A stretch of DNA of 64,000 bases from Candidatus Shapirobacteria bacterium (lineage in GTDB: Bacteria > Patescibacteriota > Microgenomatia > UBA12405), in contig JACPHO010000001.1 in NCBI GenBank assembly GCA_016188545.1, positions 14,249-78,248 on the forward strand, in the 5' to 3' direction. The translations under genes were made by a program, and so were the position numbers. Positions 22,979-38,501 of the stretch are shown here, in pieces. Each line of letters opens with the position of its first letter. Within the stretch, counting starts at the first letter, position 1. The notes under the pieces are model-generated. The model did not search any database. It saw nothing but the letters and a program-made list of their open reading frames with translations, and was not told where the DNA came from.

Positions 22979-24003
22979 ATATACATTGCCATTTCAATTA
23001 GACGGCAGGAATAGCCGTATTCGTTATCGTACCATGCTCCAATACAAACCATATCATCAGCCACTACATTAGTCATACGGGTATCAATCACACAAGATGC
23101 GTTGTTACCAATGATATCGGAAGATACTAACGGCTCATAAGTTACCTTGACCTTCCCCACCATTTCTGGACTGACACTGGCATCTTCAAAAATGGAGTTA
23201 ACTTCTTCGATAGTTGTCTTGCGAACCATTTTAAAAGTCAGGTCTGAGTAGCTTCCACAAATGACTGGCACCCGTATAGCTGTTCCAGCAAATCTACCCT
23301 TAGCTTCCGGGTAGGCGGCAATTACTGCCTCAGCTGCTCCAGTGGCAGTTGGCACTATGTTAATAGCTGCTGCACGTGCTCGGCGAGGATCTTTCCCGCT
23401 TCCATCAACAATATTTTGATTAGTTGTATACGCATGAATGGTGGTTAGTGATCCTTCTTGAAACCCAATTTTCTCATCAATCAGTTTGACGATCGGTGCC
23501 ACACAGTTTGTTGTACAAGAACCATTTGACACTAATTTTTCACCTTTATATCTATTTTCATTAACTCCCAGAATGAACACTGGAATTTTTGGGTCCTTGG
23601 CAGGGGCTGAGATCACCACTTTCTTAGCACCTCCGTTTAAGTGTAAAAGTGCCTTACTGTCAGTAAAAGCTCCAGTGCATTCTAATACCACCCCAACTCC
23701 ATAGTCGCCCCATTTTATTTTCCCAGGGTCACTTTCACCCAGTAGGGGAATGACAACATCACCAACTACCAGTCGGCCTATCTCTCCGCCTTTTTGTGGA
23801 TCAGATGTCTCCACTTTCATGGGAACTCTTCCGTATACTGAGTCATATTTAAACTGGTTGGCGTAGGACTCAGCGCTTAGGTCACCTTTAGTATTAATGG
23901 CAGCCACTTCAACATCGTATTTTTCCATTAGTATTGCCCTTAGTACTACTGTGCCAATTCTTCCAAAACCGTTTATACCTACTTTCAATTTTTTATTCTG
24001 CAT
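22969..24003 (-). CDS. gap: glyceraldehyde-3-phosphate dehydrogenase
   Basis: 344 aa; NGFGRIG, SCTTNCVAP. Confidence 0.9.
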   Translation of the reverse strand: MQNKKLKVGINGFGRIGTVVLRAILMEKYDVEVAAINTKGDLSAESYANQFKYDSVYGRVPMKVETSDPQKGGEIGRLVVGDVVIPLLGESDPGKIKWGDYGVGVVLECTGAFTDSKALLHLNGGAKKVVISAPAKDPKIPVFILGVNENRYKGEKLVSNGSCTTNCVAPIVKLIDEKIGFQEGSLTTIHAYTTNQNIVDGSGKDPRRARAAAINIVPTATGAAEAVIAAYPEAKGRFAGTAIRVPVICGSYSDLTFKMVRKTTIEEVNSIFEDASVSPEMVGKVKVTYEPLVSSDIIGNNASCVIDTRMTNVVADDMVCIGAWYDNEYGYSCRLIEMAMYICK

Positions 24004-25042
24004 AACTTAATGATATAGCATTTACCACTCGCTTCGCTACTCTTGGCTTCTGTAGTTCGTGATCTGGCACCGCTCTGGCTCTTTCCACCACTTTGTCAAG
24101 CCTAATCGGCATAAAAAATACCACGGCTCCAACCAGATCCTCACCTTCATCATTTCTCCTCATGGACTCAGCAAAATCTCGAAATATTCCCATACTAGCT
24201 CTAAACTTTCTTATCTCATCCACGTTATCATGTGTTCGTTCAAACGATCTTCCGCACTCCGCAAATGAGTTTGCGTCCAGCACATCATACTCTTGTGGAA
24301 AATCATGCCTTCCTTGGCGCACTTTAACTTGATAAAAAGTAGTTTTTCCATTTCCATTATCTGCAATCAAATCAACTTTATTATCCTGGTCATCAGCCTC
24401 ACTTCCAAATCGGACATTTTCCATTCCCATATCTTTCAGTAACCAAAAGGCAGCCATCTCTGCTTCGATTCCGTTGATGTATCGTAATCGTTTTCGCTCT
24501 CCCAGAAGCCTAAGAATCTTAGGGTTATCAAATACAGAATCAAACATTTTATACGATTGAACTTTGTCATATCCCAGCTCCCCAACGCATATTTCCATCA
24601 AATCTTTCCATGCTTTTCCAAAAGCCATTCCTTCATGCTTCTCTTCCTTAATGTTATGGTTTCTACTTAGTGACTCTATAAGACTATTAGTGGTGGCACA
24701 GCCATTAGCTACCAAAAAAACCAACTTCCTTTGGTCTTCACTAGTTGAATCAAACCCTCTCTGATCTACTTCATTCTTAGCCCAGACCCATTCCAAACTA
24801 TCATGTGACATATCACTTTCCAATATTTGAACTGCTTTCACAATTCTATTCGGTCTAGGTAAGTTTTCGAAACGAGCCTGAACCTTATGATCGGCTTGTC
24901 TGATAGAGGATTCTCTGATTTTTGGTCCTGGATCATCCATACACCACTCAACCAGTCGTTTACTCGAGTCAATTTGTTTTTCCCTACCATCCAATGGAGC
25001 TGCTAACCACTCAAATGTCGGAAGTGATCTTGCTCTTCCCAT
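23993..25042 (-). CDS. hypothetical protein with C-terminal PD-(D/E)xK / Mrr-like nuclease motif
   Basis: 349 aa; VDLIADNGNGKTTFYQVKV resembles the Mrr-cat D...QxK core; tightly packed between pgk and gap (start 2 nt after pgk stop, end overlapping gap start). Confidence 0.4.
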   Translation of the reverse strand: MGRARSLPTFEWLAAPLDGREKQIDSSKRLVEWCMDDPGPKIRESSIRQADHKVQARFENLPRPNRIVKAVQILESDMSHDSLEWVWAKNEVDQRGFDSTSEDQRKLVFLVANGCATTNSLIESLSRNHNIKEEKHEGMAFGKAWKDLMEICVGELGYDKVQSYKMFDSVFDNPKILRLLGERKRLRYINGIEAEMAAFWLLKDMGMENVRFGSEADDQDNKVDLIADNGNGKTTFYQVKVRQGRHDFPQEYDVLDANSFAECGRSFERTHDNVDEIRKFRASMGIFRDFAESMRRNDEGEDLVGAVVFFMPIRLDKVVERARAVPDHELQKPRVAKRVVNAISLSYAE

Positions 25043-25043
25043 G

Positions 25044-26075
25044 TTATTCCCATGCTGGCAGACTGCCCTTCGTCAGTAGTTCTAACATCATCCCTCCACC
25101 AGAAGCGATTAAGTCAATTTGTTCTTTCATCCCCAAACTTTCTACAGATGCTGTCGTATCCCCACCAGCCAGTACTTTATACCCTGGACTACTGGCCACA
25201 GCCATGGCTATTTCTTTTGTTCCTTCTTTACAGTCATCCTTTTCAAACCACCCCATGGCTCCCGCCCAGACAACCATTTTTGACTGGCCGATAATTTCTT
25301 TAAATTGAGCTATGTCTTCTTTACTTAGATCAAATCCATCTTCTCGTAATTTTGCAACTTTTATTTTTTCACTTTTAACTATTAACTCTTCACTATTATT
25401 AATTAATAGTGGCAATTTCCCCCCAATTAACACATGATCGGCAATTTTTAGAAGTTCCGGCAAATGACTTAATTTATCTGCTTTTGCTCCACCCAATACG
25501 ATAGTCAATGGGTGACTAGGATCATCAACTACTTTTAATATTTTTTCTACTTCGGAAATAAACGCCAATCCATAAAATCCTGGCAAACTTTTATAAAGCA
25601 TATTAGATCTTTCCTTTCGGTGGGACACCGCCAGAGCATCATTTACAAAAAATTGGCAGATTTCCACAAGATTTTTTAAAAAGTCACTATCATTTGCCTC
25701 TTCACCTTTCCAGAATCTCAGGTTCTCCAAAAATACTATTTGATTTGTTGCCATCGCCATATCCAGCTTTTCAAAGTTACCCACATCCTCCACAAAAATA
25801 CTCTCTATCAAATTTTCACCGTTTGGTTCGAGTAAGCTCATTAGTTCCACATACACCGGTCTCATTGAATATTTTGGGTCATGCCCTTCAGGACGACCAA
25901 GCTTACCCACTATAGAGACCTGACATTTTTTGGCGAGCAGTAGTTTTATAGTAGGAATCGATTTTACTAGTCGGTAGTTATCGCTGATATCCCCATCATT
26001 CATTGGCACGTCTAAGTCTAGTTTTAGAATTACTTTTGTCTCTGGTAATATTTCCTCAACCGATCTCAGCTTCAT
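25044..26075 (-). CDS. pgk: phosphoglycerate kinase (short form)
   Basis: 343 aa; GRPEG, FLENLRFWKGEE, LGGAKADKL, WAGAMGWFE, AGGDT motifs. Confidence 0.85.
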   Translation of the reverse strand: MKLRSVEEILPETKVILKLDLDVPMNDGDISDNYRLVKSIPTIKLLLAKKCQVSIVGKLGRPEGHDPKYSMRPVYVELMSLLEPNGENLIESIFVEDVGNFEKLDMAMATNQIVFLENLRFWKGEEANDSDFLKNLVEICQFFVNDALAVSHRKERSNMLYKSLPGFYGLAFISEVEKILKVVDDPSHPLTIVLGGAKADKLSHLPELLKIADHVLIGGKLPLLINNSEELIVKSEKIKVAKLREDGFDLSKEDIAQFKEIIGQSKMVVWAGAMGWFEKDDCKEGTKEIAMAVASSPGYKVLAGGDTTASVESLGMKEQIDLIASGGGMMLELLTKGSLPAWE

Positions 26076-26502
26076 ATTTTTTTATTTTATTAATTCTTCT
26101 AATATACCTCTCTTCTGAGCCAAACATTGTTGCCAGAAAAACTGACACTATCTTCATGTTCTCATCCACACTGACGGCATCAGCTGATAGGCAAACAACA
26201 TTGATATCGTCGTCGTTTCGGGCAGCTCTGGCTTGTTTTTCAAAAGTACAAAGCCCAGCTCTAATCCCTTTTACTTTATTGACGGCAATTGATGCTCCGG
26301 CGCCTGATCCACAAACCAGTATTCCTCTACCATTTTCGACCGCCACCTTTTCACCAATTTTTATAGCAAAGTCGGCATAGTCGTCTTCCTTTTCGTACGA
26401 ATTTGCCCCCAGATCTCTAAATTCATAGTGCTCTGACTCCATCCATTTTTTTATCTCCTCTTTGAGCCTAAATCCGCGGTGATCAGCAGCAATATATATC
26501 AT
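26056..26502 (-). CDS. rpiB: ribose-5-phosphate isomerase B
   Basis: 148 aa; GILVCGSGAGASIAVNK. Confidence 0.8.
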   Translation of the reverse strand: MIYIAADHRGFRLKEEIKKWMESEHYEFRDLGANSYEKEDDYADFAIKIGEKVAVENGRGILVCGSGAGASIAVNKVKGIRAGLCTFEKQARAARNDDDINVVCLSADAVSVDENMKIVSVFLATMFGSEERYIRRINKIKKYEAEIG

Positions 26503-26522
26503 CTACTATAATATTACCACCG

Positions 26523-27215
26523 ATGTCTACTATCACTCTCTTAGGTCATGACTATTCGTATACGATAACCCGTAAGCTAATCAGAAGCCTATCTATCCGA
26601 ATTCACTCACGTCGTACTTTTTCGGTTTCCGCTCCACACTTAACCCCAGCTTTTTATATAGAACGCTTTATAAACGAACACTCGGCATGGATAGTCAAAA
26701 ATTCTAGTAAAATTACTAAGAAAAAAACACTAAAAAGTCTAAAAACATTAAAAATAGTCGATAAAGAGTACAAAATATTGATAACAAAATCAAAAATGGA
26801 TTCCGTTGTAATTTTCAAAGAAGAACAAAAAATTTATGCAAATTCTACAGCATTGACCAATATTCATTTAAAAAAACTTTTTGACACCCGTTTTCGCCCC
26901 TTTGCACTATCAATTATCAGTGAAGAATTAAAAAAACTGTCCCAAGAATTTGGTTTTAGTTACAGCAGAGTCTCTGTCAAAAACACCACCTCTCGTTTTG
27001 GTTCCTGCTCCAGTCGAAATAATCTAAACTTTAACTGGCAAATTATTTTTCTACCGTATCCTATTTTTCGTCACATTCTACTTCATGAGTTAAGCCACAC
27101 TGTCCATCACAACCATTCCAATAAGTTTTGGTCCCACCTAGCTGCTTGCGATCCTGATTGGAGAGTCAACCGACGCTATCTAAAAGCCCATGCCAGCTCT
27201 CATTTTATTATCTAA
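26523..27215 (+). CDS. YgjP/DUF45 (WLM-like) zinc metallohydrolase
   Basis: 230 aa; HELSHTVHHNHSNKFW motif. Confidence 0.65.
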   Translation: MSTITLLGHDYSYTITRKLIRSLSIRIHSRRTFSVSAPHLTPAFYIERFINEHSAWIVKNSSKITKKKTLKSLKTLKIVDKEYKILITKSKMDSVVIFKEEQKIYANSTALTNIHLKKLFDTRFRPFALSIISEELKKLSQEFGFSYSRVSVKNTTSRFGSCSSRNNLNFNWQIIFLPYPIFRHILLHELSHTVHHNHSNKFWSHLAACDPDWRVNRRYLKAHASSHFII

Positions 27216-27230
27216 ATTATCTAATATTTT

Positions 27231-28319
27231 TTGTATAATACACACATGGACCCGTCAAAATCTCTTGTTTTCTACATCATAAGGGAAAAAAGTGAAGATG
27301 CTGCAAAAGACTTTCCCAACCTTATTTATGACATTCGTAACGCTTATGTCTTTGTCGATGTCATCGAAAGTTCCCCTCGCTCAGTCACCCTATCCGGTGA
27401 TGCGTCCTACAAATCAGAACTCGAGTATCTTACTACCGACAAACCCGAAAAATTTTCTAATTATTCCTTTTGCGCAAAACTAACAATTACCCAAGAAGAT
27501 TATTTAACCTTCAACAAGCTCCGCCAGTTCCTATCCCACCACCGCTACGAATATCGTATCTATAGCAATCAGCTCCATTCTTATCTTCCTAAGGACAGCG
27601 AACTTATCAATCTAGAATTTGGTTCAGTCAATCTTAAAACTTTTGAAGCTCTCAAAAAATTCTCTCTCATCCCCATCTATTTCTCCCAAAAGAATCGTAA
27701 CTATTACGCTATCAATTTGACCGATAAAAAAGTTCACCTAGTCAACCCCCATCTTCTCGCATTTATTTTTGACAAAACAATTCCCGAATCCACCATGCCC
27801 GAACTGAGTTATCCAGTTGCTCAAGATCTAAACCTTTTTTCAGCAATGTACGACAAACAACTTATACCCACTGACTTTTATCAATATTTCCAAAAATCTA
27901 CCAAGGTAATCAATAATAGTAACTTTGATATCGACAACCCCGGTCGAAAAGTTTTTATCAAACCATATATTCTAGAATTCAATGACAAAAACGGCGAGTT
28001 CTACACTTACGCCGGACCAGAGGGCGCCTCAATGCTATTAATGTCCAAAATCTTAAGAGGCGAGACTCTAGAAACTTGCTTACTACGTGTACTCAAAGAA
28101 GAACTGGGTATAGCCGAGGATTTTGTCGGCGCTTTTGTGTCACATGATATTGAGTTTGACCGTGATCGGGAAGGGAGACTCACTCCACGTCTAGTTGTCT
28201 TTGTTTATGTTGATAAAATCATCAACAAGGATAGGGCTCTTCAAATGAGTCAAACTGGTTGGCGCTCAGTCGATGGAAAGATCCCAAATTTGACCACACA
28301 AAATAAATCAAAAAGTTAG
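27231..28319 (+). CDS. hypothetical protein with degenerate C-terminal Nudix-like box
   Basis: 362 aa; GETLETCLLRVLKEELGI approximates GX5EX7REUXEEXGU with substitutions. Confidence 0.35.
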   Translation: MYNTHMDPSKSLVFYIIREKSEDAAKDFPNLIYDIRNAYVFVDVIESSPRSVTLSGDASYKSELEYLTTDKPEKFSNYSFCAKLTITQEDYLTFNKLRQFLSHHRYEYRIYSNQLHSYLPKDSELINLEFGSVNLKTFEALKKFSLIPIYFSQKNRNYYAINLTDKKVHLVNPHLLAFIFDKTIPESTMPELSYPVAQDLNLFSAMYDKQLIPTDFYQYFQKSTKVINNSNFDIDNPGRKVFIKPYILEFNDKNGEFYTYAGPEGASMLLMSKILRGETLETCLLRVLKEELGIAEDFVGAFVSHDIEFDRDREGRLTPRLVVFVYVDKIINKDRALQMSQTGWRSVDGKIPNLTTQNKSKS

Positions 28320-28754
28320 CTGGCTAATCTTTTCACAAAACTCAACTGAGTATTTATCACCAAATGCCTTTGAGGCATCAAGAGGTGACATCCATTCAAA
28401 ACTATCGTGTTCATAGTTTAACTTAATTTCTCCATCTGCCACTTCGGTCTTATAGATAGCCAGTATTAATCCCACGTCTCCGGCGATTTCGTTTTTCAAT
28501 CTAATCTGGGAAAATACTGTTGCAAAATAAGATGAATTTACAACTGTATAACCAGTTTCTTCCATCACTTCCTTGGCCAATGTTGATCCTATAGTATCAC
28601 CCCTCTCCACTCTGCCCCCTGGGATATCGTATTTCACCCCGCCGGTGTATCCCTTTACATTTTCAATTGCTTTCTGGCTAACTTTTAAAACTAATATTTG
28701 ACCCTTTCCATTACTAATAATTGCTTTGACACCGAGGTTAGATAAGTCTTCCAT
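28308..28754 (-). CDS. NUDIX hydrolase
   Basis: 148 aa; GGRVERGDTIGSTLAKEVMEETGY. Confidence 0.7.
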   Translation of the reverse strand: MEDLSNLGVKAIISNGKGQILVLKVSQKAIENVKGYTGGVKYDIPGGRVERGDTIGSTLAKEVMEETGYTVVNSSYFATVFSQIRLKNEIAGDVGLILAIYKTEVADGEIKLNYEHDSFEWMSPLDASKAFGDKYSVEFCEKISQLTF

Positions 28755-28760
28755 AGCCGA

Positions 28761-29534
28761 TTATACCTCTATCTCAATCCCTACTGGACAATGATCTGAA
28801 CCCATCACCTCAGTCAATATGAATGCCTCTTTGAGGTTTTTGCTCAGAGCCTTATCGATATAGATATAATCAATTCTCCAGCCTACATTCCTCGTTCGTG
28901 CCTTAGTAATTTGATCCCACCATGAATACATCACCTCATCTGGGTGAAGTAATCGAAATGTATCAACCCAACCTTGATCCTCCCATTGAGTCAGTATTTC
29001 TCTTTCCTCAGCTAGAAATCCTGACACCTTCGAATTTTCCTTTGGTCGAGCTAGGTCGATCTCTTCATGGGCCGTATTTACATCTCCACAAAAGATTACT
29101 TTCTCACCCTTTTTACGTAGTTCATTAACGTAAGCCAAAAAGTATTTATAAAAATCCATCTTATATTTCAGTCTTCCCAAGTCTCGCTTCCCATTTGGAA
29201 AATATACGTTTAGTAAGGTAAATTCGTCAAATTTAGTTATCACCACTCTGCCTTCGTTATCCCAGTCATTGTCCCTGTCTCCAATAATCACCGTCTTTGG
29301 TTCGTCTTTACTAAATGTCGCGACCCCAGAGTATCCGGCTTTTTCGGCTTCATTTAAATTCATATGGTATCCAGCCGGTTCGTCTATCGTGTGGGGGATT
29401 TGGTCTACTTTGGCTTTCATCTCTTGAAAGCAATAGACATCAGCCTTATCTTCCGCCATAAATTGATACACACCCTTTTTTACTGCTGCTCTAAACCCAG
29501 CGACATTCCAAGATATGATTCTAATTTTCATCAC
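28761..29534 (-). CDS. xth: exodeoxyribonuclease III / AP endonuclease
   Basis: 257 aa; ISWNVAG, CFQE, SDHCPV. Confidence 0.85.
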   Translation of the reverse strand: MMKIRIISWNVAGFRAAVKKGVYQFMAEDKADVYCFQEMKAKVDQIPHTIDEPAGYHMNLNEAEKAGYSGVATFSKDEPKTVIIGDRDNDWDNEGRVVITKFDEFTLLNVYFPNGKRDLGRLKYKMDFYKYFLAYVNELRKKGEKVIFCGDVNTAHEEIDLARPKENSKVSGFLAEEREILTQWEDQGWVDTFRLLHPDEVMYSWWDQITKARTRNVGWRIDYIYIDKALSKNLKEAFILTEVMGSDHCPVGIEIEV

Positions 29535-29976
29535 CTATTATAATGGAGATATGGATCATATCGCCATCATGAACAAGAAGCTTGGCTTAATTGACCGAAT
29601 TTTATCGGGAAGGAAAAAAGTTGAAACTCGTTGGTACAAAAATAAAATTGCCCCATATAACCAGATATCTGCAGGAGAGACGGTTTATTTCAAAGATTCT
29701 GGCAGTCTGGTTAGAGCCAAGGCCAGAGTCGCCAAAGTCGTCCAATTCGACAACTTAACCCCCACCAAAACAAAAGAAATAATAAGTAAGTACGGCCAGG
29801 AAATAGACGTTACCGACCCAACAGATCTTTCTTGGACATTGGGTAAAAACTTTGCCATTTTAATTTGGCTAGGCGACGTCAAAGCAGTAAAACCTTTTCA
29901 AATAAACAAAACTGGCTACGGCACCGGTTGTGCCTGGCTTGTCGTCAAGAATGTTGATATAATCAAAGCCGATTAA
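29515..29976 (+). CDS. ASCH (PUA-like) domain protein
   Basis: 153 aa as given (probable start at the internal Met near 29551); ILSGRKKVETRW ASCH-type motif. Confidence 0.5.
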   Translation: MILIFITYYNGDMDHIAIMNKKLGLIDRILSGRKKVETRWYKNKIAPYNQISAGETVYFKDSGSLVRAKARVAKVVQFDNLTPTKTKEIISKYGQEIDVTDPTDLSWTLGKNFAILIWLGDVKAVKPFQINKTGYGTGCAWLVVKNVDIIKAD

Positions 29977-29994
29977 AACACTATGTTTTAATTT

Positions 29995-30066
29995 CCAGCA
30001 GGAGCCGGGCGGTTAGGCAATGGTCTGTAAAACCATCATAAGTAGGTTCAACTCCTACCTGCTGGA
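29995..30066 (+). tRNA. tRNA-Tyr (GUA), class I (short variable arm)
   Basis: acceptor ccagcag/ctgctgg; anticodon stem atggt/accat with loop CUGUAAA (the Tyr loop); T-arm gtagg-TTCAACT-cctac; discriminator A; 5-nt variable region. Confidence 0.55.
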
Positions 30067-30112
30067 CAAGACACTGGAGTATACTAATTGGATTAATGAT
30101 TAAACATAATCC

Positions 30113-31330
30113 ATGTCAGAATTCAAACTTAATCCAACATTTATATCCCAAGAACAACTAACTAAACCTGGTAATCCTGGTTCTGAGTCAATTCTGCCAA
30201 ATACAAACAGGGGGGGCTTTGATAAATTTACTCAAATCTATCAAAATATTTCAACATCAAATGCCACAGATCAAAGAAAGCAGTTCGAACAATCAAAAGT
30301 AGCGATTAGTGAAATACTCAGGGACACACTTACATCTGAAACCGTCATCGAAGTGCAAAATCCGTTTCAAAATGAGACAGATAACGATAAAACAATTAAT
30401 GTCCCACTCGATCAATACATCCAGTATTGGCAGCGCGACTTAGAAACTACTTTTGCCGCCCAAGATAATTTCGTAGCAATTTGTGAAGGAAAACTGTCGG
30501 GAAAACTACTAAAGCACGACAAAAATAACCCTTCATTATTTGTTAAAACAGCTGATTTATTAATTGGACATCTAACCAATGCCGGTGAGCCAAACGACGA
30601 GAGTAAAACGAAAATTGCCGAATTTGCCCTAAAACAACTTGAATCGACTACCACCAAGAAAATTGATGCACCGAGTGCTATCACTGCCGTTAATTTGGTC
30701 AATGCCGTATTTTATTGCAATGGAACCACAAAAGAGAAATCTGCTGAAATGTTGCCTCACGGATTGAATGTCATGCAAAACATAGTAAGAAACCAGCAGT
30801 TTAAAGATAAAAAACAGTATCCAACAAATATAAAAAGCAAATCGCTAGACGAACAACAGGCAATAAGACAAAAAGTGAACCTGGATAATCTTGACATTGA
30901 CTTTCACAATCAACAAGCAGAATCAGTGCTGCAAGCAATTGCCAAAACATTGTCGTTTCCACTTGATTACAGCCTAGACCAGGCAGAACCGTTGTTTAGT
31001 AGACTGCAAGATGTATTTACAAACGACAAAGCAGTACTTAATGATTTCAGAGTAAAAACGATTAATATGTACAAGGACGTGTTGCTAGATAAATTTAGGG
31101 ACCAGGCTATGAATCCACTACCGGAGACATTACTAAGCATGCCCAATGAGCAGCGGGCATCAGTTGTGACTACGGCCATTGGTTTATTGAAATTAATTTA
31201 TGACCAGGGTTACGATAAAACTGCCAGCCAGTTGCAGTTCAAAATACCTGACATTGCAATAATGTATATCATGCACAAAAAAGATAATAGCTATCGTGGT
31301 CCACAGACAGAGAGGTTTGTGAGGGTATAA
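30113..31330 (+). CDS. hypothetical protein
   Basis: 405 aa; no TM, no recognisable motif. Confidence 0.45.
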   Translation: MSEFKLNPTFISQEQLTKPGNPGSESILPNTNRGGFDKFTQIYQNISTSNATDQRKQFEQSKVAISEILRDTLTSETVIEVQNPFQNETDNDKTINVPLDQYIQYWQRDLETTFAAQDNFVAICEGKLSGKLLKHDKNNPSLFVKTADLLIGHLTNAGEPNDESKTKIAEFALKQLESTTTKKIDAPSAITAVNLVNAVFYCNGTTKEKSAEMLPHGLNVMQNIVRNQQFKDKKQYPTNIKSKSLDEQQAIRQKVNLDNLDIDFHNQQAESVLQAIAKTLSFPLDYSLDQAEPLFSRLQDVFTNDKAVLNDFRVKTINMYKDVLLDKFRDQAMNPLPETLLSMPNEQRASVVTTAIGLLKLIYDQGYDKTASQLQFKIPDIAIMYIMHKKDNSYRGPQTERFVRV

Positions 31331-31332
31331 CA

Positions 31333-32307
31333 ATGGTACGAAAAACAGTAGATCGCCCCAACTTATCCGAAAACATCGTTCAAATAATAGAGAAGTCAGG
31401 TGAATATGGAAGCTCTTGTTGGCTAAGAGCCCAGGGGTTGATGGATAAATTAGTAGATGAAGGTATTGTGACAGTCCAAGCTGTTGGACTTAAGCCCCTT
31501 ATGGGGGATATGTCTAGGCCAGGCCATGTAGGGCTAATCATATTCAATAAAATGGTTTGGATTGATTCGGGTGACGGGCTGGGTTCTGCAACACATGACA
31601 TTAGTCCAGAAACTGTATTATCACCAAGATCAATTCTACACAACGGGACATATTACCGAGTTTTTGAGATAACCAGTGATAGACAAGAGTTTGAAGAATT
31701 CGTTGCGGTTCACAACTCTTTGTCTGATCTGGGCACTGATGTCAATGAACTGTTAGTAAATAATGGAACAGATCCTGAGATGGGGAAGGTTCTGTGGAAA
31801 CTGCAACTGCTCTCAGACAAGTTGGAACATTTTTTTGGAGTTGACACACAGTTGTCACAAGAATCACAACGAGAGTTATTGATAATGTTTACTGACACTT
31901 TTACGAAGACTGCAAAACACAACTTATCTGAACATTCAAGCGAGAATATGAATGAACTACTTAAAGGGATAATCTATCGACCTGAGTTTCTGTTGCAAAT
32001 GGTAATCGAGGAATCAGAAAGGCATCAAAACTATCTACACAAAACAGTGTCCAGGATTGCAAATGTGCAGAGCTTAGACGATGTAAACATTAGAAGCTGT
32101 GATGATTTTTGGAAAGAAGCAAATGACAGATTTAAATTATGGGAAAATTATTCAAAAAACATTACTTGCTTGTTAAAAGTTGGACATCCAATTTATTCAC
32201 AATCGACACCGAAGGAACTTGTTGACGCTATACAAGACTCTCTAAACAAAGTGCTGTTAGAAACATTGGGCTATATACGTATGTATAAGGAGGAAGGTGA
32301 AAATTGA
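31333..32307 (+). CDS. hypothetical protein
   Basis: 324 aa; starts 3 nt after the previous gene (operon); no motif. Confidence 0.45.
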   Translation: MVRKTVDRPNLSENIVQIIEKSGEYGSSCWLRAQGLMDKLVDEGIVTVQAVGLKPLMGDMSRPGHVGLIIFNKMVWIDSGDGLGSATHDISPETVLSPRSILHNGTYYRVFEITSDRQEFEEFVAVHNSLSDLGTDVNELLVNNGTDPEMGKVLWKLQLLSDKLEHFFGVDTQLSQESQRELLIMFTDTFTKTAKHNLSEHSSENMNELLKGIIYRPEFLLQMVIEESERHQNYLHKTVSRIANVQSLDDVNIRSCDDFWKEANDRFKLWENYSKNITCLLKVGHPIYSQSTPKELVDAIQDSLNKVLLETLGYIRMYKEEGEN

Positions 32308-32574
32308 TCCATTTCATCATTAATCCTGTATAGAAAGCACTAAAATACATAACGCTGAGCCAATTTTTCAACTGGTTAGTGGGCACGAGAGTCTCCTAAA
32401 TGGAAATTAGGTTAGCCATAATCCGTTTCCATCATACCAACATTCTCTTGACAGTCTTGTCATCTTCCATATTCTTTATTGCTGTGTGCGAGTTTTTCTC
32501 GTACGCGTAGCTTTCTAAATGAGAATGGAATAGAGCCGTAGCATAGTTTTATATCGTTTTGATACAATGTCCTC

Positions 32575-32895
32575 ATGAAAATAGAAACACTTACAGCCTG
32601 GCAACTAAGTGATTCTCCAGCATGCAATAGTGAGGCAGAAGAAATAATGGGGGAATTAATAAGGATCTCAGCTGATGCACAGGAGTGGAAACCAGTGCCA
32701 GTGACGGAGTTGGACAGACTATTTACGGGGGTAACCACAAGAGATAACCTGGAAGCACCCCTAAGAGAAGGCGTAATCAATCTAAGGACATCAGGACTAG
32801 TAACTCTGGAAGATGTCGATGGTGTCCGCTCTATAGTTGTCACTGAGAAATTCAAGACGTTTTATGAGAAAGCTTCTCAGAAAAAGTTGCCCTAA
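32575..32895 (+). CDS. hypothetical protein
   Basis: 106-aa ORF. Confidence 0.3.
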   Translation: MKIETLTAWQLSDSPACNSEAEEIMGELIRISADAQEWKPVPVTELDRLFTGVTTRDNLEAPLREGVINLRTSGLVTLEDVDGVRSIVVTEKFKTFYEKASQKKLP

Positions 32896-32922
32896 AAACT
32901 GAATATCTCCATTTCCACCTAG

Positions 32923-33390
32923 TCAAGTCGCAGACAGATATTTCTTAATCGTTTTTTCTCCTGCTTTCTTTCCATCAACCTTGAAAAACGCCAAATATCT
33001 AAGCCAACTGCCCATATTTACTTTCTTCATTGTTGTTAGTATCAAGTTTGCAATCTTTTCTGTCGTCACCCACTTCTCTTTGGACAGTATTAACCTTTCT
33101 TCAACTTTGTCAAAAATTCCTACCGCCACAATACCAGCACTCCCTCTATCCAACTTTTTTTCGCCAACTACCGCATGATATATCGACGAATATAACTTTG
33201 CTCCAACATACTTAACTCTTTTTCCTGACTTTTTAACAACTGTAATATGTGCCAGATCAATTTTTTCATGAGTCGTAAATACAAATTCACACTTCAAGCA
33301 CTTCCTCCTTCTCCAAATTTGAGTTCCTTTATTGGTTGGTCTCGAGTTAGTGACTTCAATTTGTTCGCTTCCACAACTTGGACAAAACAT
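32923..33390 (-). CDS. nrdR: transcriptional repressor NrdR
   Basis: 155 aa; N-terminal zinc ribbon MFCPSCGS...CLKC followed by an ATP-cone (VVKKSGKRVKY). Confidence 0.8.
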   Translation of the reverse strand: MFCPSCGSEQIEVTNSRPTNKGTQIWRRRKCLKCEFVFTTHEKIDLAHITVVKKSGKRVKYVGAKLYSSIYHAVVGEKKLDRGSAGIVAVGIFDKVEERLILSKEKWVTTEKIANLILTTMKKVNMGSWLRYLAFFKVDGKKAGEKTIKKYLSAT

Positions 33391-33520
33391 ATCTATATAT
33401 TGACATGTAACTATAGATTTATCAATTTAAATATTAATTATAAACCTAAAACAGTTGTCATGCATATCTACATCATGTTCTATCAAGTAGGCCGCTATTA
33501 ATTTTAAATATAAGTATCAA

Positions 33521-33907
33521 ATGACCAAAGACCATAAAACAGAAATTATAATTAGTGAACCAGAGCAGATATCATTGTTTGTCAGACAAGCCAATCACTT
33601 TATAGAATCAAAACTATATTTGGGAGTCCACACCATCGGATCCAACCCAAGTGGGGTAATTTCATATCCTACTGGAAATGTTGAAAACTCAACTCTGAAA
33701 CCAACTGTCAAACCTGTATCCATAACCCCACCTTTTAGAATTTCCTTTTCACAAAATGATGAGGACACTAGTGTTTTTCACTCGAATTGTGAATTCTCAC
33801 CTGATCCATCACAGGATTGGATGCTGGACATTCTAAAATACCATTTCGCCCGTGCTGTCGCCACTTCTCTTCCAAAACCAAGATCACCTACTTCTATTAA
33901 CAGTTAA
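33521..33907 (+). CDS. hypothetical protein
   Basis: 128-aa ORF. Confidence 0.3.
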   Translation: MTKDHKTEIIISEPEQISLFVRQANHFIESKLYLGVHTIGSNPSGVISYPTGNVENSTLKPTVKPVSITPPFRISFSQNDEDTSVFHSNCEFSPDPSQDWMLDILKYHFARAVATSLPKPRSPTSINS

Positions 33908-34223
33908 ATCAAGTATGAACAATATAGTTCTTAGTCAGCCAAGCAAAATTTACTCAATTGTTAATTCGCTAAACGACTCAGACATTTTCAGCTCAATAAA
34001 TATTAGCTCATTTAGTGCTGGCCAAGACTATCTCAAGTGGTTGGCCCCGTCGCTAGAATATCCCTGTATTTTCAATCCTTACTATCTTTTTTATCCATTC
34101 AAAATAGGCTATGGTCCACGACCATTCATTACATTTACTGATGAAATCGGCGAAAACAAACTCTTGCTCGATCAGGTCAAAACAAAAATACTGGCGATAA
34201 TTCTAAATACATCAAAGTTTTGA
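33852..34223 (+). CDS. hypothetical protein
   Basis: 123-aa ORF; overlaps the previous ORF in another frame. Confidence 0.25.
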   Translation: MLSPLLFQNQDHLLLLTVKSSMNNIVLSQPSKIYSIVNSLNDSDIFSSINISSFSAGQDYLKWLAPSLEYPCIFNPYYLFYPFKIGYGPRPFITFTDEIGENKLLLDQVKTKILAIILNTSKF

Positions 34224-34381
34224 TGCAGTTATTTGTAGTGTCAGATATTAGGCGAGAATTAAAAAGCATCAGGCAATACCGTAAAAAACTGGGGTTAAAC
34301 TAAGCCAGTTCTTGATTTTACTTTTCTAAATACTTAGTATTAATTATCACTAAAATAATTAAGGCACCACTTCTTTGCATT

Positions 34382-34798
34382 TTGTTTTTGATATTAGGTT
34401 TTTTTATAGGCAATAAACTGCAGCTACAAAAAGAAAAATCATGGTTTGAATCCATCAAACCAGTCCCCTTTGCCGGTGTCCAACAATATGCCACTTATTA
34501 TTACCAGGTAGATGATGATTTACCTAAATTTAAAGTTCAGGCATCAACATTTATCGAAGATCCGTATAGTGAGTTGTGTAATGATTGTGTTAATCAAGAA
34601 ATAAAAATTGGCAAAAACGAGATAACTTTAATGACCAATCCTAATCGAAAAAATCCTATATCAATCTATATTGTGCCAGAAGAAAACTACGGCAGTATCT
34701 ATAGTTTTCAATATTATCAACTTGATCAAAAGGGAAACGAAATTGAGTTTGAAGATGGCGTAAAGGAGGAAATTATAAGAGAAATTGAAAATTGGTAG
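34382..34798 (+). CDS. hypothetical protein (putative secreted)
   Basis: 138-aa ORF with N-terminal hydrophobic segment. Confidence 0.3.
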   Translation: MFLILGFFIGNKLQLQKEKSWFESIKPVPFAGVQQYATYYYQVDDDLPKFKVQASTFIEDPYSELCNDCVNQEIKIGKNEITLMTNPNRKNPISIYIVPEENYGSIYSFQYYQLDQKGNEIEFEDGVKEEIIREIENW

Positions 34799-34811
34799 AA
34801 CTATTTAATAA

Positions 34812-35675
34812 CTAGTCACGTTCTTCAATCAGTCTTTCAACTGCCTCCGCTGTTTCTTCTGGTTTTTCCACTGTCAACACATGTCCTGCCTCATCAACTT
34901 CCTCAATATGATATTTACCCCTACCATCCAGTAGTTTTCTTGCTTGAGTCGCATTAGTTAGCTTATCGAATTTTCCGAAAATTAGATCAATTGGGATAGT
35001 ATTATTTTCAATTAAGTCATCGATGTGAGTCTTTGAAATCGCCATCCCCATATCCACATAAACTTCCTTCGACGCCTTTAACTTCCCCTCAAAACCTGTC
35101 TCATCGATTATTTTCTTATCAAACTTATACATATTTATATGTTTGGCAGTGAAATAGGTATAGCGTTTTGTATCGACAATCCGCTTAACCGCGCTCATAG
35201 CTAATTTGCTTTTGCGAAGCAGCCGATACATCACTCCCATAACTTTCACCATCGCTGTTTTATTGTTTTTTAAAAACATTGGGGCAATCAGAATTATGTG
35301 ACTAGCTACTTTTGGATGGCGGCTATAAAAAGTCGATACTACATAAGCCCCCATCGAATGACCCACAACTACCGGTTTTTTTATCTTCATACTTTTGATA
35401 AAACCAGCCAGATAATCCGCTTGGTTCCTAAGATTATAAGAATCTAGTCGGTCGCTATCTCCAAAACCGGGAAGATCTACCCCGATAAATTGATACTCTT
35501 TATATAGATACCGTGCCATTGGGATAAACCCCTTCCAATTATTTGTCCATCCGTGCACAAACACGAGAGGACGACCTTTTCCCGAAGTAGCATAGTGTAT
35601 AACAGTATCTCCAACTTTTACCTCTGCTTCCTTAAATATTGCTACTTTGGCACCTTTTGTGATATCTTTAGACAT
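34812..35675 (-). CDS. alpha/beta-fold hydrolase
   Basis: 287 aa; HGW...; nucleophile elbow GHSMG. Confidence 0.7.
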   Translation of the reverse strand: MSKDITKGAKVAIFKEAEVKVGDTVIHYATSGKGRPLVFVHGWTNNWKGFIPMARYLYKEYQFIGVDLPGFGDSDRLDSYNLRNQADYLAGFIKSMKIKKPVVVGHSMGAYVVSTFYSRHPKVASHIILIAPMFLKNNKTAMVKVMGVMYRLLRKSKLAMSAVKRIVDTKRYTYFTAKHINMYKFDKKIIDETGFEGKLKASKEVYVDMGMAISKTHIDDLIENNTIPIDLIFGKFDKLTNATQARKLLDGRGKYHIEEVDEAGHVLTVEKPEETAEAVERLIEERD

Positions 35676-35677
35676 AG

Positions 35678-36739
35678 ATGTATCTTAGCAAACTTCACCT
35701 TAATTTCTTCCGTTCTTATCAAGATAGACTGATCGAATTTGGACCAAAAACAAATCTTATTGTCGGTCACAACGGTACTGGTAAGACCAATATTCTTGAG
35801 GCTATCTACTTCCTATCTTCTGGTAAAAGTTTCCGAAGTAGTGCCTTAGGTCAACTCCTCAAGTGGGACTCAACATATACTATCGTCACTGGAATAATCA
35901 ACCTCAATGATCACCAGACTGAGCTCGAATGTCAGCTCAGTAAAGAAATTGGAAAAGTTTCTGCAACCCGTAAATTTTTTATCGACAGAGTCGTCAAAAC
36001 CCGTCCCAAATACTTAGGTACCCTCAAAACTGTGGTCTTTGAGCCTGAGGATATCCGCCTTGTCACCGGTTCACCTTCTCGCCGCCGTGATTATCTCGAT
36101 AGTGTCTTTAGTACTACGCAGTGGCGTTATGCTGGCGCTCTTTCCCAGTACAACCGTGCTCTCAAACATCGTAACGAGCTATTGGACATGATTCGGGAAA
36201 ACCGCTCAAACAAATCAGAACTTTTTTATTGGGACCAATCTCTGATTAAAAATGCCACTATCATCCAAGATTTTCGTCAAAACTACATCCGTTCAGTCAA
36301 TCGTTACTTTAGTCAGCATGCTCTATCCGAAATACAACAACTTTCTCTCAATTACCGACCCTCCACTCTCTCCCAAGAAAAATTAGATCAACAGTATATT
36401 ACTGACCTCAACTTTGGCTACACTCAAGCTGGAATTCATCGTGATGATTTTAGCTTTGACAGTAAAGCCTTTTCAGCTTCCAACAAAAATCTGGCTTTTT
36501 GGGGGAGCCGAGGACAACAGAGGTTGTCGGTCCTTGCTCTCAGATTAGCCCAGATCAACTATCTCGAAGAGACATATCACCAAAAACCCATCCTACTACT
36601 GGATGATATCTTCTCAGAACTTGACCCGGAACACCGCCAACTAGTAGTCGACATTTGCCAAAGCTACCAGACAATCTTTACTTCAGCCGAGAGTACTACT
36701 TGCGATATCTTACCTACTTCTCAACAGATAATCCTCTGA
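35678..36739 (+). CDS. recF: DNA replication and repair protein RecF
   Basis: 353 aa; Walker A GHNGTGKTN; signature/Walker B LLLDDIFSELD. Confidence 0.8.
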   Translation: MYLSKLHLNFFRSYQDRLIEFGPKTNLIVGHNGTGKTNILEAIYFLSSGKSFRSSALGQLLKWDSTYTIVTGIINLNDHQTELECQLSKEIGKVSATRKFFIDRVVKTRPKYLGTLKTVVFEPEDIRLVTGSPSRRRDYLDSVFSTTQWRYAGALSQYNRALKHRNELLDMIRENRSNKSELFYWDQSLIKNATIIQDFRQNYIRSVNRYFSQHALSEIQQLSLNYRPSTLSQEKLDQQYITDLNFGYTQAGIHRDDFSFDSKAFSASNKNLAFWGSRGQQRLSVLALRLAQINYLEETYHQKPILLLDDIFSELDPEHRQLVVDICQSYQTIFTSAESTTCDILPTSQQIIL

Positions 36740-36776
36740 ACTAAACTTACCCCCTGCACAAATGATGTTTTTGTAC

Positions 36777-36782
36777 TATAAT
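36777..36782 (+). promoter_or_regulatory. putative -10 box (TATAAT) of the 16S rRNA promoter
   Basis: tttgtacTATAATagc about 140 nt upstream of the 16S 5' end. Confidence 0.25.
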
Positions 36783-36923
36783 AGCTACACAGTCGTTGAG
36801 ACTGTTTTCTTTTGTACATTAACATTCAATCACTTTATTTGAAGCCACGGCTGTTAGTGCCAGAAGGATGACACCGATAATTCGGTATTTCTTTCTAAAA
36901 AATTATCCCGATCATTCGGGATT

Positions 36924-38501
36924 TGTACTAAGAGTTTGATCGTGGCTCAGGGTAAACGCTGGCGATGTGCCTAAGACATGCAAGTCGAACGGGATTTGTA
37001 GTCTACACGAAGACATTGATAACTTCTTAACTTTTTTTAAGTCTTTCCACTTTTGGAATATTTTTTTGAACTTTGATAAGAATCGATTATTGTAATCATT
37101 TCGATGTTTTCGTGTAGATTATAGATTCAGTGGCGAACGGGTGAGTAATGAGTACGAACGTACTCTCAAGCGGAACATAGCCCACCGAAAGGTGGGGTAA
37201 TTTTCCATAGTCTCGAAAGAGTAAAGACGCAAGTCACTTGAGAAGCGGCGTACTTGCCACCAGCTAGTTGGTAGGGTAACGGCCTACCAAGGCTATAACG
37301 GCTAACGGCTCTTAGCGGAGAGTCCGTCACAATGGGACTGAGACACGGCCCATACTTCTACGGAAGGCAGCAGTTAGGAATCTTGCACAATGGACGAAAG
37401 TCTGATGCAGCGACATCGCGTGAAGGATGAAGGCTCTCGGGTCGTAAACTTCTTTTATTTTGCCATGAAGGCATTTTGAATCAGCAACTACTAACTACGT
37501 GCCAGCAGTCGCGGTAATACGTAGGTTGCAAGCGTTACCCGGTTTTATTGGGCGTAAAGCGTCTGTAGGTGGTTTTATAAGTCTTATTTCAAAGACTCCG
37601 GCTCAACCGGAGATAGGGGTAGGATACTGTAAGACTAGAGTGATATCGGGGTTACTGGAATTTTTAGTGTAGGGGTAAAATCCGTGGATACTAAAAAGAA
37701 CACCAAGCGCGAAGGCGGGTAACTAGGTATTTACTGACACTCAGAGACGAAAGCTAGGGTAGCCAATCAGATTAGAGACCTGAGTAGTCCTAGCCGTAAA
37801 CTATGTATGTTAATTCTCTGCAATTTATTGTGGGGGATGTAAGCTAACGCGTTAAACATACCGCCTGGGGAGTATAGCCGCAAGGCCGAAACTCAAACGA
37901 ATTGGCGGGGAGGCGCACAACCAGTGGAGCATGTGGTTCAATTCGATACAAAGCGATGAACCTTACCTGGGTTTGACATTTATCTGCAAACCCCCAGAAA
38001 CGGGGGAATCCTTAGAGGGTGATAAACAGCTGTTGCATGGCTGTCGTCAGCTCGTGACGTGAGTTGTTCTCTTAAGTGAGGTAACGAGCGCAACCCCCAT
38101 CCGGTGTTATTGTGTCACCGGAGACTGCCTAGCATTATTTTGTTAGGAGGAAGGAGGGGACGACGTCAAGTCAGCATGATGCTTATGTCCAGGGCTACAC
38201 ACATCCTACAATGGGGAGGACAATGGGTCGCGAAACCGCGAGGTGGAGCCAATCCCACAAACCTTTCCTCAGTTGGGATTGCAGGCTGAAACTCGCCTGC
38301 ATGAACCCGGAATTGGTAGTAATCGCGCATCAGCAGCGCGCGGTGAATACGTTCTCGCCTCTTGCACACACTGCCCGTCAAATCAACAAAGTTGGGGGTA
38401 CCCGAAGCTTGGCCTTTGGCCGAATCAAGGTAAATCCAGCGATGAGGGTTAAGTCGTAACAAGGTATCTGTACTGGAAGGTGCAGATGGATCACCTCCTT
38501 T
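36924..38501 (+). rRNA. rrs: 16S ribosomal RNA, divergent (CPR-like), with ~100-nt AT-rich expansion in helix 6/V1 (~36995-37118)
   Basis: AGAGTTTGATCGTGGCTCAG at the 5' end; GTGCCAGCAGTCGCGGTAATAC (515 site with C>T); ATTAGAGACCTGAGTAGTCC; CTGCCCGTCA; AAGTCGTAACAAGGTA; GGATCACCTCCTT at the 3' end. Confidence 0.9.

Follow-up and report, generated by a model that had tools for sequence, protein, structure and literature searches.

The locus described here lies in a 64,000-nt stretch of DNA (the window) from a MAG of an uncultured member of Candidatus Shapirobacteria (CPR), where a tRNA-Tyr gene is followed by two large orphan genes, a non-coding spacer, a short orphan ORF, nrdR, three further small ORFs, and a hydrolase gene next to recF and the 16S rRNA gene (Table 1). 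The order YgjP-like gene, xth, tRNA-Tyr, recF, and 16S rRNA is conserved, and the window genes at 15208-27215 are syntenic with those of relatives (42-81% identity), with the exception of an inserted orphan at 23993-25042; two Pfam-less ORFs of about 500 aa belong to this conserved group. The tRNA is of the archaeal-type class I (C1-G72, short variable region), with orthologues in the relatives L001-L010 and L012. Window positions 24382-37290 are reproduced with 100% identity in an independent Logan assembly of run SRR12113420, so that neither junction of the block between tRNA-Tyr and the hydrolase gene is an assembly artefact.

Table 1. Features of the interval from tRNA-Tyr to the 16S rRNA gene, in window coordinates.
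Feature	Position	Strand	Basis or remark
tRNA-Tyr (GTA), 73 nt, left anchor of the variable slot	29995-30067	+	ARAGORN; Rfam 53.6 bits
15-nt inverted repeat, left arm GGATTAATGATTAAA	30090-30104	+	ends 8 nt ahead of the A405 start codon
A405 (HYV64_00295), orphan protein, 405 aa	30113-31330	+	ORF; self-match only
B324 (HYV64_00300), orphan protein, 324 aa	31333-32307	+	ORF; self-match only
Spacer, non-coding, 267 nt	32308-32574	.	
15-nt inverted repeat, right arm GGATTAATGATGAAA (as read on the - strand)	32312-32326	-	5 nt past the B324 stop
C106 (HYV64_00305), orphan ORF, 106 aa	32575-32895	+	final gene of the reversed-skew segment
nrdR, divergent, zinc ribbon and weak ATP-cone	32923-33390	-	Zn_ribbon_NrdR PF22811, 3.9e-15
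Gap, 130 nt	33391-33520		
D128 (HYV64_00315), small hypothetical ORF, 128 aa	33521-33907	+	divergent from nrdR
E102 (HYV64_00320), putative small ORF, 102 aa	33915-34223	+	NCBI start = ATG at 33915
F138 (HYV64_00325), conserved small protein	34334-34798	+	homologues by recF; 138-aa ORF listed from 34382
Alpha/beta hydrolase, right anchor	34812-35675	-	Pfam Abhydrolase_1, 2.4e-22
recF, anchor conserved across all relatives	35678-36739	+	
16S rRNA gene, after recF	36924-38501		

A405 and B324 are real genes and orphans. In 30 shuffles of the window, the longest open frame averaged 152 aa and never exceeded 201 aa, and only about 7e-6 open frames of 405 codons would be expected by chance; with lengths far above the shuffle maximum, both ORFs are thus beyond chance. 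Their in-frame codon scores top all six frames (0.195 bits/codon for A405), and B324 starts 2 nt past the A405 stop on the same strand, which makes translational coupling likely. A405 was its own sole match in 5.8e9 clusters and also when 1.84e9 (1.84 billion) representative proteins were scanned in full with HMMER, which was done for A405 alone of the two, and the homology search with B324 likewise returned only B324 itself. Searches of Pfam, NCBIfam, PHROGs, and PADLOC gave zero matches for A405, with only chance-level matches among PDB sequences (E >= 0.17); B324 stayed below threshold in Pfam and NCBIfam (E >= 0.02) and matched nothing in PHROGs, PADLOC, or the PDB. Phage, IMG/VR, and plasmid collections contained no homologue of either protein. 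A405 is predicted to be acidic, soluble, and mainly helical without a transmembrane segment, and B324 appears to combine an N-terminal alpha+beta region (approximately residues 1-115) with an all-helical C-terminal part; the single-sequence structure models proved to be of no use, that of B324 having low confidence (pLDDT 42) and yielding only noise in Foldseek. Our tentative guess is that the two are soluble cytoplasmic proteins working as a single accessory module.

Downstream of the pair, the spacer matched no Rfam family at E <= 1 but folds with a z-score of -3.0, a stability reached by 0 of 200 shuffles. The orphan ORF that follows it, C106, forms a cluster with a single member, and its coding score (0.137) is the highest among the six frames. 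The inverted repeat bracketing A405-B324 occurs in two copies in the window and no more; as a simulated region contains by chance alone about 1.8 (+/- 2.4) inverted repeats that are just as good, it is probably a coincidence, and a second pair of the same quality is found at 31050/32945.

The divergent nrdR encodes, as expected for a repressor of ribonucleotide reductase genes, an N-terminal zinc ribbon with two CxxC motifs and an ATP-cone-like region in a protein of fitting length, but it remains below the cut-offs for the equivalog (TIGR00244, 77 vs. 124.65 bits) and the ATP-cone (23.1 vs. 25.8 bits). Neither nrd genes nor NrdR boxes were found within the window, and none of its 10 ORFs of at least 500 aa encodes a ribonucleotide reductase. 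Solitary nrdR genes are widespread among bacteria, and in E. coli the neighbours of nrdR are ribD and nusB; the lone nrdR in this block is unremarkable. The lengths of the small ORFs are within chance, and homologues support F138 only. D128 has a coding score of 0.189 (antisense frame, 0.143) and no homologue was detected among the loci of the relatives. For E102, a mechanical ORF call of 123 aa from a GTG at 33852 is an alternative, and the coding status is uncertain, with a score (0.105) below that of the antisense frame (0.139). The listed start of F138 is a TTG at 34382, but homology reaches 16 codons further 5', to 34334, through an extension without a canonical start codon, so that the gene is either 5'-truncated or employs an unusual start. 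F138 homologues adjoin recF in L010 (35-38% identity, best 6e-28) and L002 (25% identity, 1e-5), and F138 is an ancestral recF neighbour. Across all ORFs of the block, the PHROG search gave only weak zinc-ribbon matches, for nrdR.

A sequence-only reading of this DNA had described most of this arrangement correctly, namely the tightly spaced, co-directional 405-aa and 324-aa ORFs beside tRNA-Tyr, their lack of detectable domains, the exact extent of both gaps, the four small hypothetical ORFs (all annotated by NCBI), and an isolated nrdR without an nrd operon. It had also noted that no integrase was visible, and we found none in 24382-37290; the search for a direct repeat of the tRNA-Tyr 3' end, which it had proposed, was equally negative. 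It had further raised the idea of a novel two-component system, which A405 and B324 may form.

Variability of the tRNA-Tyr-to-recF slot became evident from a comparison set of 11 relatives, in which its content of unrelated genes ranges from 0 to 8.1 kb. L001, the closest relative (identity of 93% in Xth and 91% in the hydrolase), is represented here by a 3-kb contig with ~2x coverage; there, the 3' end of tRNA-Tyr (954-1028) touches or overlaps that of the hydrolase gene (106-954), and all of 30068-34811 is missing. In the other relatives, the slot spans 0.5 to 8.1 kb with mutually unrelated contents (SDR and HAD; methyltransferase, TPR, and unknowns; HD; MgtC and Nudix; acyltransferase). An HD-domain gene in L006 and L012 holds the position taken here by a 2.8-kb cassette (30068-32900), and in L012 it is followed by an nrdR homologue with 68% identity. 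L010 (JAGORQ010000004.1) carries an element abutting the same tRNA-Tyr 3' end, where the gene of a large serine recombinase (507 aa, Resolvase and Zn_ribbon_recom) terminates. This element resembles the block in its place between tRNA-Tyr and the F138 homologue/recF and in having Pfam-less ORFs, one of them 406 aa long, but differs by its recombinase, an Sf6-like small terminase, a MerR/GyrI-like regulator, and a UvrA-like ATPase, and its proteins show no resemblance to A405, B324, or C106. Homologues of these three were not detectable in any relative, including those with 63-75% Xth identity, although the flanking genes were still recognisable (35-80% identity). The block is not conserved in synteny. 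The earlier remark that tRNA 3' flanks are common integration sites fits the variable slot and the recombinase element of L010, by which the tRNA-Tyr 3' flank is a real hotspot. The proposal of a lineage-specific island holds for lineage specificity, given its absence from L001, but not for a single island covering 30113-34798, as F138 homologues lie beside recF and nrdR is found in the slot of L012.

The cassette is compositionally anomalous. Third-codon-position GC skew is +0.01 in A405, +0.19 in B324, and +0.27 in C106, compared to a mean of -0.38 (sd 0.11, max -0.20) for the 26 remaining + strand genes, and the third-position G:C counts of 73:71, 69:47, and 26:15 deviate accordingly from the background (binomial P = 5e-6, 2.5e-9, and 5e-5, respectively). 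The signal persists at fourfold-degenerate sites (P = 4e-4, 9e-7, and 0.03), and skew deviation puts the three genes at ranks 1, 3, and 4 among the 66 window genes; the other strong outlier, GAPDH, is shifted the other way, towards C. The strand-symmetric tetranucleotide distance of 30068-32900 is in the 99th percentile and is equalled only by windows over the 16S gene. An unusual amino-acid composition of the encoded proteins could account for part of this tetranucleotide deviation. In contrast, nrdR, D128, E102, and F138 show the native strand-skew signature. G+C, GC3, and synonymous codon preference of A405 and B324 are host-typical (z = 0.95 and -0.03), making a distant foreign source unlikely.

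With a probability of roughly 0.6, we read the locus as a plasticity slot of the ordinary kind at a tRNA flank, which has recently acquired an orphan cassette and has older residents beside it. The interval would be a gene-turnover slot of Candidatus Shapirobacteria with fixed anchors, in which the genes between tRNA-Tyr and recF are swapped lineage by lineage. Its content here would form a two-layer mosaic. The older layer, nrdR, D128, E102, and F138, would be in equilibrium with the mutation bias of the replication strand at this locus; F138 and nrdR count as older residents because both also occur in the slot of other relatives. The newcomer would be the 2.8 kb directly at the tRNA 3' end, consisting of A405-B324, the spacer, and C106, since only this segment combines a reversed third-position skew with atypical tetranucleotide usage. 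It would have arrived recently from a source in which its replicative orientation was reversed, the likeliest being a mobile element of unsampled CPR bacteria or a relative's genome of similar G+C. What we infer is the direction in which events ran and an origin from a mobile element; a recombinase, an att repeat, and tRNA 5'/3' chimerism were searched for as integration marks at this locus and none was found. Because F138 is ancestral, the empty site of L001 requires at least one deletion and is no proof of cassette insertion.

This deletion also lends some weight to the reading that the whole block is ancestral and was deleted in L001, so that the window would retain fast-evolving lineage genes without any new acquisition. 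The nrdR of the L012 slot would fit, as would A405 and B324 with their host-like G+C and codon usage, but a long stay should have erased the reversed skew of A405, B324, and C106, and neither their tetranucleotide usage nor the lack of homologues in relatives with recognisable flanks agrees with it; we consider this reading unlikely. Somewhat less probable still is an in-place inversion of A405-B324, formerly on the - strand and co-directional with nrdR, through the 15-nt repeats. Their inverted placement around the pair, the reversed skew, and the host-like codon usage are compatible with such an event, but chance alone should produce repeats as good as these, C106 lies beyond them and is equally reversed, flipping would not affect the strand-symmetric tetranucleotide signature, and an invertase gene is absent nearby.

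The tight coupling of the strain-unique A405-B324 pair at a variable, tRNA-flanking hotspot is reminiscent of conflict systems, and by location alone a defence or toxin-like role is plausible. The specific proposal that A405-B324, perhaps together with C106, makes up a novel module of the toxin type or for defence against phages strikes us as improbable. B324 would contain a papain/NlpC-P60-like thiol hydrolase domain, with Cys29 at a helix N-terminus and with His65 and Asp78 each on one of two consecutive strands, and its helical partner would be A405; the motifs GSSCW, GHVGLII, and WIDSG and the helix-then-strands order of the model are compatible with this fold, but PADLOC, the PDB, and peptidase families even at E <= 10 gave no match, and the structure model is too poor to lend support. 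Least likely is that all of 30068-34811 represents a tRNA-targeting integrative island of the classic type, or what is left of a prophage, whose integrase was lost. Its location at the tRNA 3' end, its absence from L001, and the L010 element point in this direction, but not even an integrase fragment was found, the four older genes have native skew, two of them are common to other lineages, and PHROG matches are lacking apart from those of the nrdR zinc ribbon.

The preferred reading of a turnover slot with a recent cassette places the locus close to two phenomena known from bacteria. Orphan (ORFan), lineage-specific hypothetical proteins are typical of CPR/Patescibacteria genomes, and A405 and B324 conform to this pattern in lacking homologues and domains while having host-like codon usage, in a window rich in Pfam-less ORFs (4/10 of those of at least 500 aa). 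They differ in being singletons, whereas the two other Pfam-less ORFs examined, with 515 and 505 aa, have conserved counterparts among the relatives (48-80% identity). A 349-aa orphan ORF also sits between gap and pgk in the window. Furthermore, tRNA-flanking integration hotspots and regions of genomic plasticity (genomic islets) are known in bacteria, and genome variability of this kind is ordinary. Like these, the slot is fixed at a tRNA 3' end between conserved core genes, its content varies among close relatives and is rich in genes of unknown function, and in L010 a recombinase-bearing element occupies the identical site. Unlike them, the present genome has no integrase, att repeat, or mobility gene here, and old and new layers are mixed instead of forming one element. 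The slots flanking xth on both sides are variable as well, indicating that the plasticity is regional and not purely tRNA-targeted.

The interval between tRNA-Tyr and recF, which contains the block at 30068-34811, is different in every lineage compared. For the comparison, GTDB species representatives were scanned with the neighboring exonuclease III gene (xth), which yielded ten Shapirobacteria-type loci (L001-L010), and a single 1.8-kb contig (L012) came from a metagenome scan with NrdR. All 11 loci contain an orthologous tRNA-Tyr, and recF is present in all of them except L005 and L012, where the contigs end first. The slot between the two genes holds only a gene similar to F138 (one of the block ORFs, which are named by their length in amino acids) in L002 (0.5 kb), an HD-domain gene in L006 (1.2 kb), MgtC and Nudix genes in L007 (1.3 kb), genes for an acyltransferase and one unknown protein in L009 (1.5 kb), SDR and HAD genes in L003 (1.6 kb), genes for a methyltransferase, a TPR protein and three unknowns in L004 (3.5 kb), and a large serine recombinase element in L010 (8.1 kb). 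In L010, a 507-aa large serine recombinase (Resolvase and Zn_ribbon_recom domains) ends exactly at the 3' end of tRNA-Tyr; the accompanying genes encode an Sf6-like small terminase, a MerR/GyrI-like regulator and a UvrA-like ATPase, and further ORFs have no Pfam family. Since this element abuts the tRNA 3' end, real mobile elements do use the tRNA-Tyr site in this family. In the closest relative, L001, the block is absent between conserved flanks (Xth 93% and hydrolase 91% identical, conserved DNA ~83%), and the tRNA adjoins the hydrolase gene (distance 0 bp). The breakpoints of the alignment are precisely the tRNA 3' end and the stop codon of the hydrolase gene; thus, 30068-34811 is in its entirety an indel. 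No likeness to A405, B324, C106, D128 or E102 was found among the relatives' slot proteins.

The genes at 15208-27215 are syntenic with those of the relatives (42-81% identity), including two ORFs of ~500 aa without a Pfam family. The exception is a 349-aa ORF without a Pfam match between the genes for GAPDH and PGK; in the relatives, gap and pgk are ~0.3 kb apart and no counterpart of this ORF is present. It is a further lineage-specific orphan insertion, in this case with a native strand skew. The slots on both sides of xth differ as well (L001 1029-2917 vs. window 28308-29976): a 166-aa Nudix gene in L001 replaces the window's ASCH gene, and the window's 148-aa Nudix gene is replaced there by a HIT-like gene (an assignment made from the translation, not family-tested). 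A 362-aa Nudix-C protein was found among the relatives only in L007. As these neighboring slots also vary in L001, the plasticity is regional and not only targeted to the tRNA.

Features of the tRNA-Tyr slot and other positions mentioned in the text
Feature	Locus tag	Coordinates	Strand	Remarks
GAPDH gene		22969-24003		
349-aa ORF		23993-25042	-	no Pfam match
PGK gene		25044-26075		
Nudix-C protein gene		27231-28319		362 aa
tRNA-Tyr		29995-30067		
A405	HYV64_00295	30113-31330	+	405 aa; identical to NCBI entry
B324	HYV64_00300	31333-32307	+	324 aa; identical to NCBI entry
Spacer after B324		32308-32574		267 nt
C106	HYV64_00305		+	small ORF
nrdR		32923-33390	-	strand opposite to A405/B324
D128	HYV64_00315			small ORF
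E123/E102	HYV64_00320			small ORF
F138	HYV64_00325			small ORF
Alpha/beta hydrolase gene		34812-35675	-	
tmRNA		48251-48744	-	494 nt
SAM-I/IV riboswitch		56057-56158	+	
metK ORF		56084-57253	+	SAM synthetase

Every feature described for this block in the sequence-only reading was found at its position, including the two gaps without coding sequence (267 nt and 130 nt). The NCBI entries to which A405 and B324 are identical belong to a Candidatus Shapirobacteria bacterium, a member of the CPR (Microgenomates), and to a contig of 563,806 bp. Across 24382-37290, the sequence agrees at 100% identity with an independent Logan assembly of run SRR12113420, so neither the gene order nor the two junctions are artifacts. 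A405 and B324 have the same direction and are separated by 2 nt, a spacing that suggests translational coupling and is what this one genome shows of a possible two-gene system.

The composition of the block points to different ages of its parts. The genome has a very strong replication-strand bias: the GC skew of third codon positions averages -0.38 in 26 plus-strand genes (sd 0.11, range -0.62 to -0.20) and +0.32 in 20 minus-strand genes, and the cumulative GC skew drops monotonically over 1-64000. Owing to this strong asymmetry, changes of orientation are easy to detect. A405 (+0.01), B324 (+0.19) and C106 (+0.27), together the cassette, lie on the plus strand and have skews like those of genes on the other strand (binomial P = 5e-6, 2.5e-9 and 5e-5, respectively). 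Fourfold-degenerate sites also deviate (P = 4e-4, 9e-7 and 0.03), which shows that amino-acid composition is not the cause. The three genes hold ranks 1, 3 and 4 among the 66 window genes, with rank 2 taken by the GAPDH gene; high-expression codon bias was rejected as an explanation, as the highly expressed GAPDH gene shifts to C and the cassette to G. In the surroundings, nrdR, D128, E102, the hydrolase gene and recF have the skew normal for their strand, and F138 is intermediate. Furthermore, the tetranucleotide signature of 30068-32900, which is strand-symmetric and inversion-proof, ranks at the 99th percentile among windows of 2.8 kb, equaled only by windows over the 16S gene. Within the block, the reversed skew and this atypical tetranucleotide usage are limited to 30068-32900, and the G+C, the GC3 and the choice of synonymous codons resemble those of the host. 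Taken together, these properties indicate a recent arrival of 30068-32900 in the orientation it now has, which is better explained by a donor with similar base composition than by a simple flip in place.

The remainder of the block appears to have a different history. recF is directly preceded by an F138 homologue in L002 and in L010 (35-38% identity, E down to 6e-28), so F138 is ancestral and was lost in L001, where its absence means that a deletion is needed as well. On this homology, F138 is validated as a real gene. The similarity to its L010 counterpart runs 16 codons upstream of the TTG start, into a stretch (34313-34384) in which no ATG, GTG or TTG precedes that start as far back as the TGA at 34313. 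F138 may be 5'-truncated by a rearrangement or use a non-canonical start; its N-terminal hydrophobic stretch counts ~10 residues from the TTG. For nrdR, the gene order in L012 is tRNA-Tyr, an HD-domain gene (its protein 49% identical to the HD protein of the L006 slot) and a NrdR homologue that is 68% identical to the window NrdR over the 80 residues present. Because L012 has nrdR in the same tRNA-Tyr slot, the gene is a recurrent resident of the slot and not island cargo. The cassette takes the place that the HD gene has in other loci. The window NrdR scores 55.9 bits with the N-terminal zinc ribbon PF22811 (cut-off 27.2), 23.1 bits with the ATP-cone PF03477 (cut-off 25.8) and 77.4 bits with TIGR00244 (cut-off 124.65, alignment over residues 1-136); by these scores, it can be classed as a divergent member of the family. 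NrdR boxes (consensus ACACWATATATWGTGT, up to 3 mismatches) matched twice in the window, with 1.3 matches expected, and not in the block, and no ribonucleotide reductase is encoded among the ten window ORFs of at least 500 aa. The lone nrdR pointed out in the sequence-only reading is ordinary.

That the block might be a lineage-specific island, as proposed earlier, holds in part. It is specific to this lineage and lies in a real hotspot, with A405 starting 46 nt past tRNA-Tyr and the L001 breakpoint at the tRNA 3' end. On the other side, it is a mosaic in which only the 2.8 kb beside the tRNA is recent. No block ORF contains a recombinase domain, the called genes of 24382-37290 include no integrase or recombinase, and tblastn recovered no remnant of the L010 recombinase. 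A repeat search of 29900-35000 found no direct repeat of the tRNA 3' part, only short low-identity pairs that are not tRNA-derived; the earlier observation that neither an integrase nor a repeat boundary is visible thus stands for these intervals. Replacement of the tRNA 3' end by integration was rejected: the alignment of tRNA-Tyr with its orthologues revealed no 5'/3' chimerism, and the differences from L001 are compensatory changes across all stems. A 15-nt inverted repeat (GGATTAATGAT[T/G]AAA), present in 2 copies in 64 kb, flanks A405-B324 at distances of 8 nt and 5 nt and was tried as a terminal repeat. Simulated regions contain 1.8 +/- 2.4 pairs of like quality and a second real pair is found at 31050/32945, showing that such pairs arise by chance; the repeat was therefore downgraded and is probably coincidental.

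A405 and B324 are orphan proteins. The ORFs of A405 and B324 cannot be due to chance, as the longest open frame in shuffles of the window averages 152 aa (maximum 201 aa) and ~7e-6 open frames of 405 codons are expected. Their codon scores (0.20 and 0.13 bits per codon, with the annotated frame the best of six in both) lie in the range of conserved window genes (0.12-0.33). All small ORFs are within chance length; C106 and D128 score best in frame, and E102 is doubtful as a coding ORF. A405 has no match in Pfam, NCBIfam, PHROGs or PADLOC and only three chance-level matches to PDB sequences (E >= 0.17), and the matches of B324 in Pfam and NCBIfam all stay below threshold, with none in PHROGs, PADLOC or PDB. 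In a word-indexed search of 5.8 billion protein clusters, both proteins matched only themselves, as did A405 when 1.84 billion representatives were scanned with it by full HMMER. No homologues of either were detected by tblastn in 50,697 phage genomes or 72,556 plasmids, by pattern scans in IMG/VR, or as paralogues within the window. ORFs without a family are common in this genome: 4 of the 10 window ORFs of at least 500 aa have no Pfam family (located within 113-1888, 15208-18226 and 45356-47206), and the two accessible to comparison (515 and 505 aa) are kept in relatives at 48-80% identity. Therefore, only the absence of relatives distinguishes A405 and B324.

Several further sequence features were observed in the window. 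The 267-nt spacer after B324 has a fold z-score of -3.0, with none of 200 shuffles as stable, which could reflect a structured 3' UTR or a small RNA, or nothing at all; at a permissive threshold, Rfam found only the tRNA in the whole block and assigned no family to the spacer. Promoter and terminator scans returned no more sites than shuffles. The tRNA-Tyr is of the archaeal/eukaryal type (73 nt, short variable region, C1-G72 first pair, A73) and has neither the G1-C72 pair nor the long variable arm of bacteria, as in all 11 relatives. Archaeal-type tRNA-Tyr in CPR, including the Shapirobacteria TyrRS, has already been described (Mukai et al. 2017, PMC5370408). Elsewhere, Rfam detected a tmRNA (67 bits, 374-position model) that ARAGORN does not report and that, from its length, may be unusually long or contain an insert. 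A SAM-I/IV riboswitch lies directly upstream of metK and overlaps its mechanically assigned TTG start, so the true start is further downstream. Finally, contig LSQX01331685.1 starts with AGATGTGTATAAGAGACAG (L012 1-19), which we take to be a Nextera transposase adapter left untrimmed in a public contig.

The properties of A405 and B324 give few leads to their function. They are acidic, hydrophilic proteins without a hydrophobic segment of transmembrane grade. Single-sequence AlphaFold2 without an alignment produced poor models (pLDDT 45.5 for A405 and 42 for B324), and Foldseek searches of both against PDB gave a best E of 0.03 with a TM of ~0.3 or less, amounting to noise for both proteins, of the helical-repeat kind for B324. 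The predicted secondary structure suggests a mostly helical A405 and, for B324, an alpha+beta region at the N-terminus with a helical domain after it. Three motifs of B324, GSSC29W, GH65VGLII and WID78SG, stand in helix-strand-strand order; in its pLDDT-42 model, C29 starts a helix (29-42), H65 starts a strand (65-71) and D78 follows a strand (74-77). In our view, this order recalls the thiol hydrolases of the papain and NlpC/P60 type, as a lead without statistical support. No peptidase family matched B324 in Pfam even at E <= 10, nor did any PDB sequence. Strain-specific hotspots beside tRNA genes are a frequent site of defense and conflict genes. None of the seven block proteins matches a PADLOC-DB 2.0 profile of known defense systems at E <= 1. 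We consider it very unlikely, though worth stating, that A405 and B324, perhaps with C106, form a previously unseen conflict module for anti-phage defense or host interaction, which would have entered the tRNA-Tyr hotspot from an unsampled CPR mobile element; B324 would then be a minimal Cys-His-Asp thiol hydrolase, with the helical A405 serving as its regulator or immunity partner.

The main value of these results lies in correction and calibration. Although CPR genomes are streamlined (~0.6 Mb) and their gene order is strongly conserved, they retain discrete turnover slots, in which whole genes are swapped between genomes ~83% identical in DNA. In this genome, third-position strand skew is so strong (~+/-0.35) that it can date or orient recent arrivals even where G+C and codon usage say nothing. 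The orphan cargo is of some interest in its own right, as A405 and B324 are sizeable and well formed, lack any relative among 1.8 to 5.8 billion sequences and would suit studies of orphan origin or structure. The block is real and specific to its lineage, but it is a further instance of the well-known tRNA-flank plasticity slot and neither one coherent island nor a new system that can be demonstrated.
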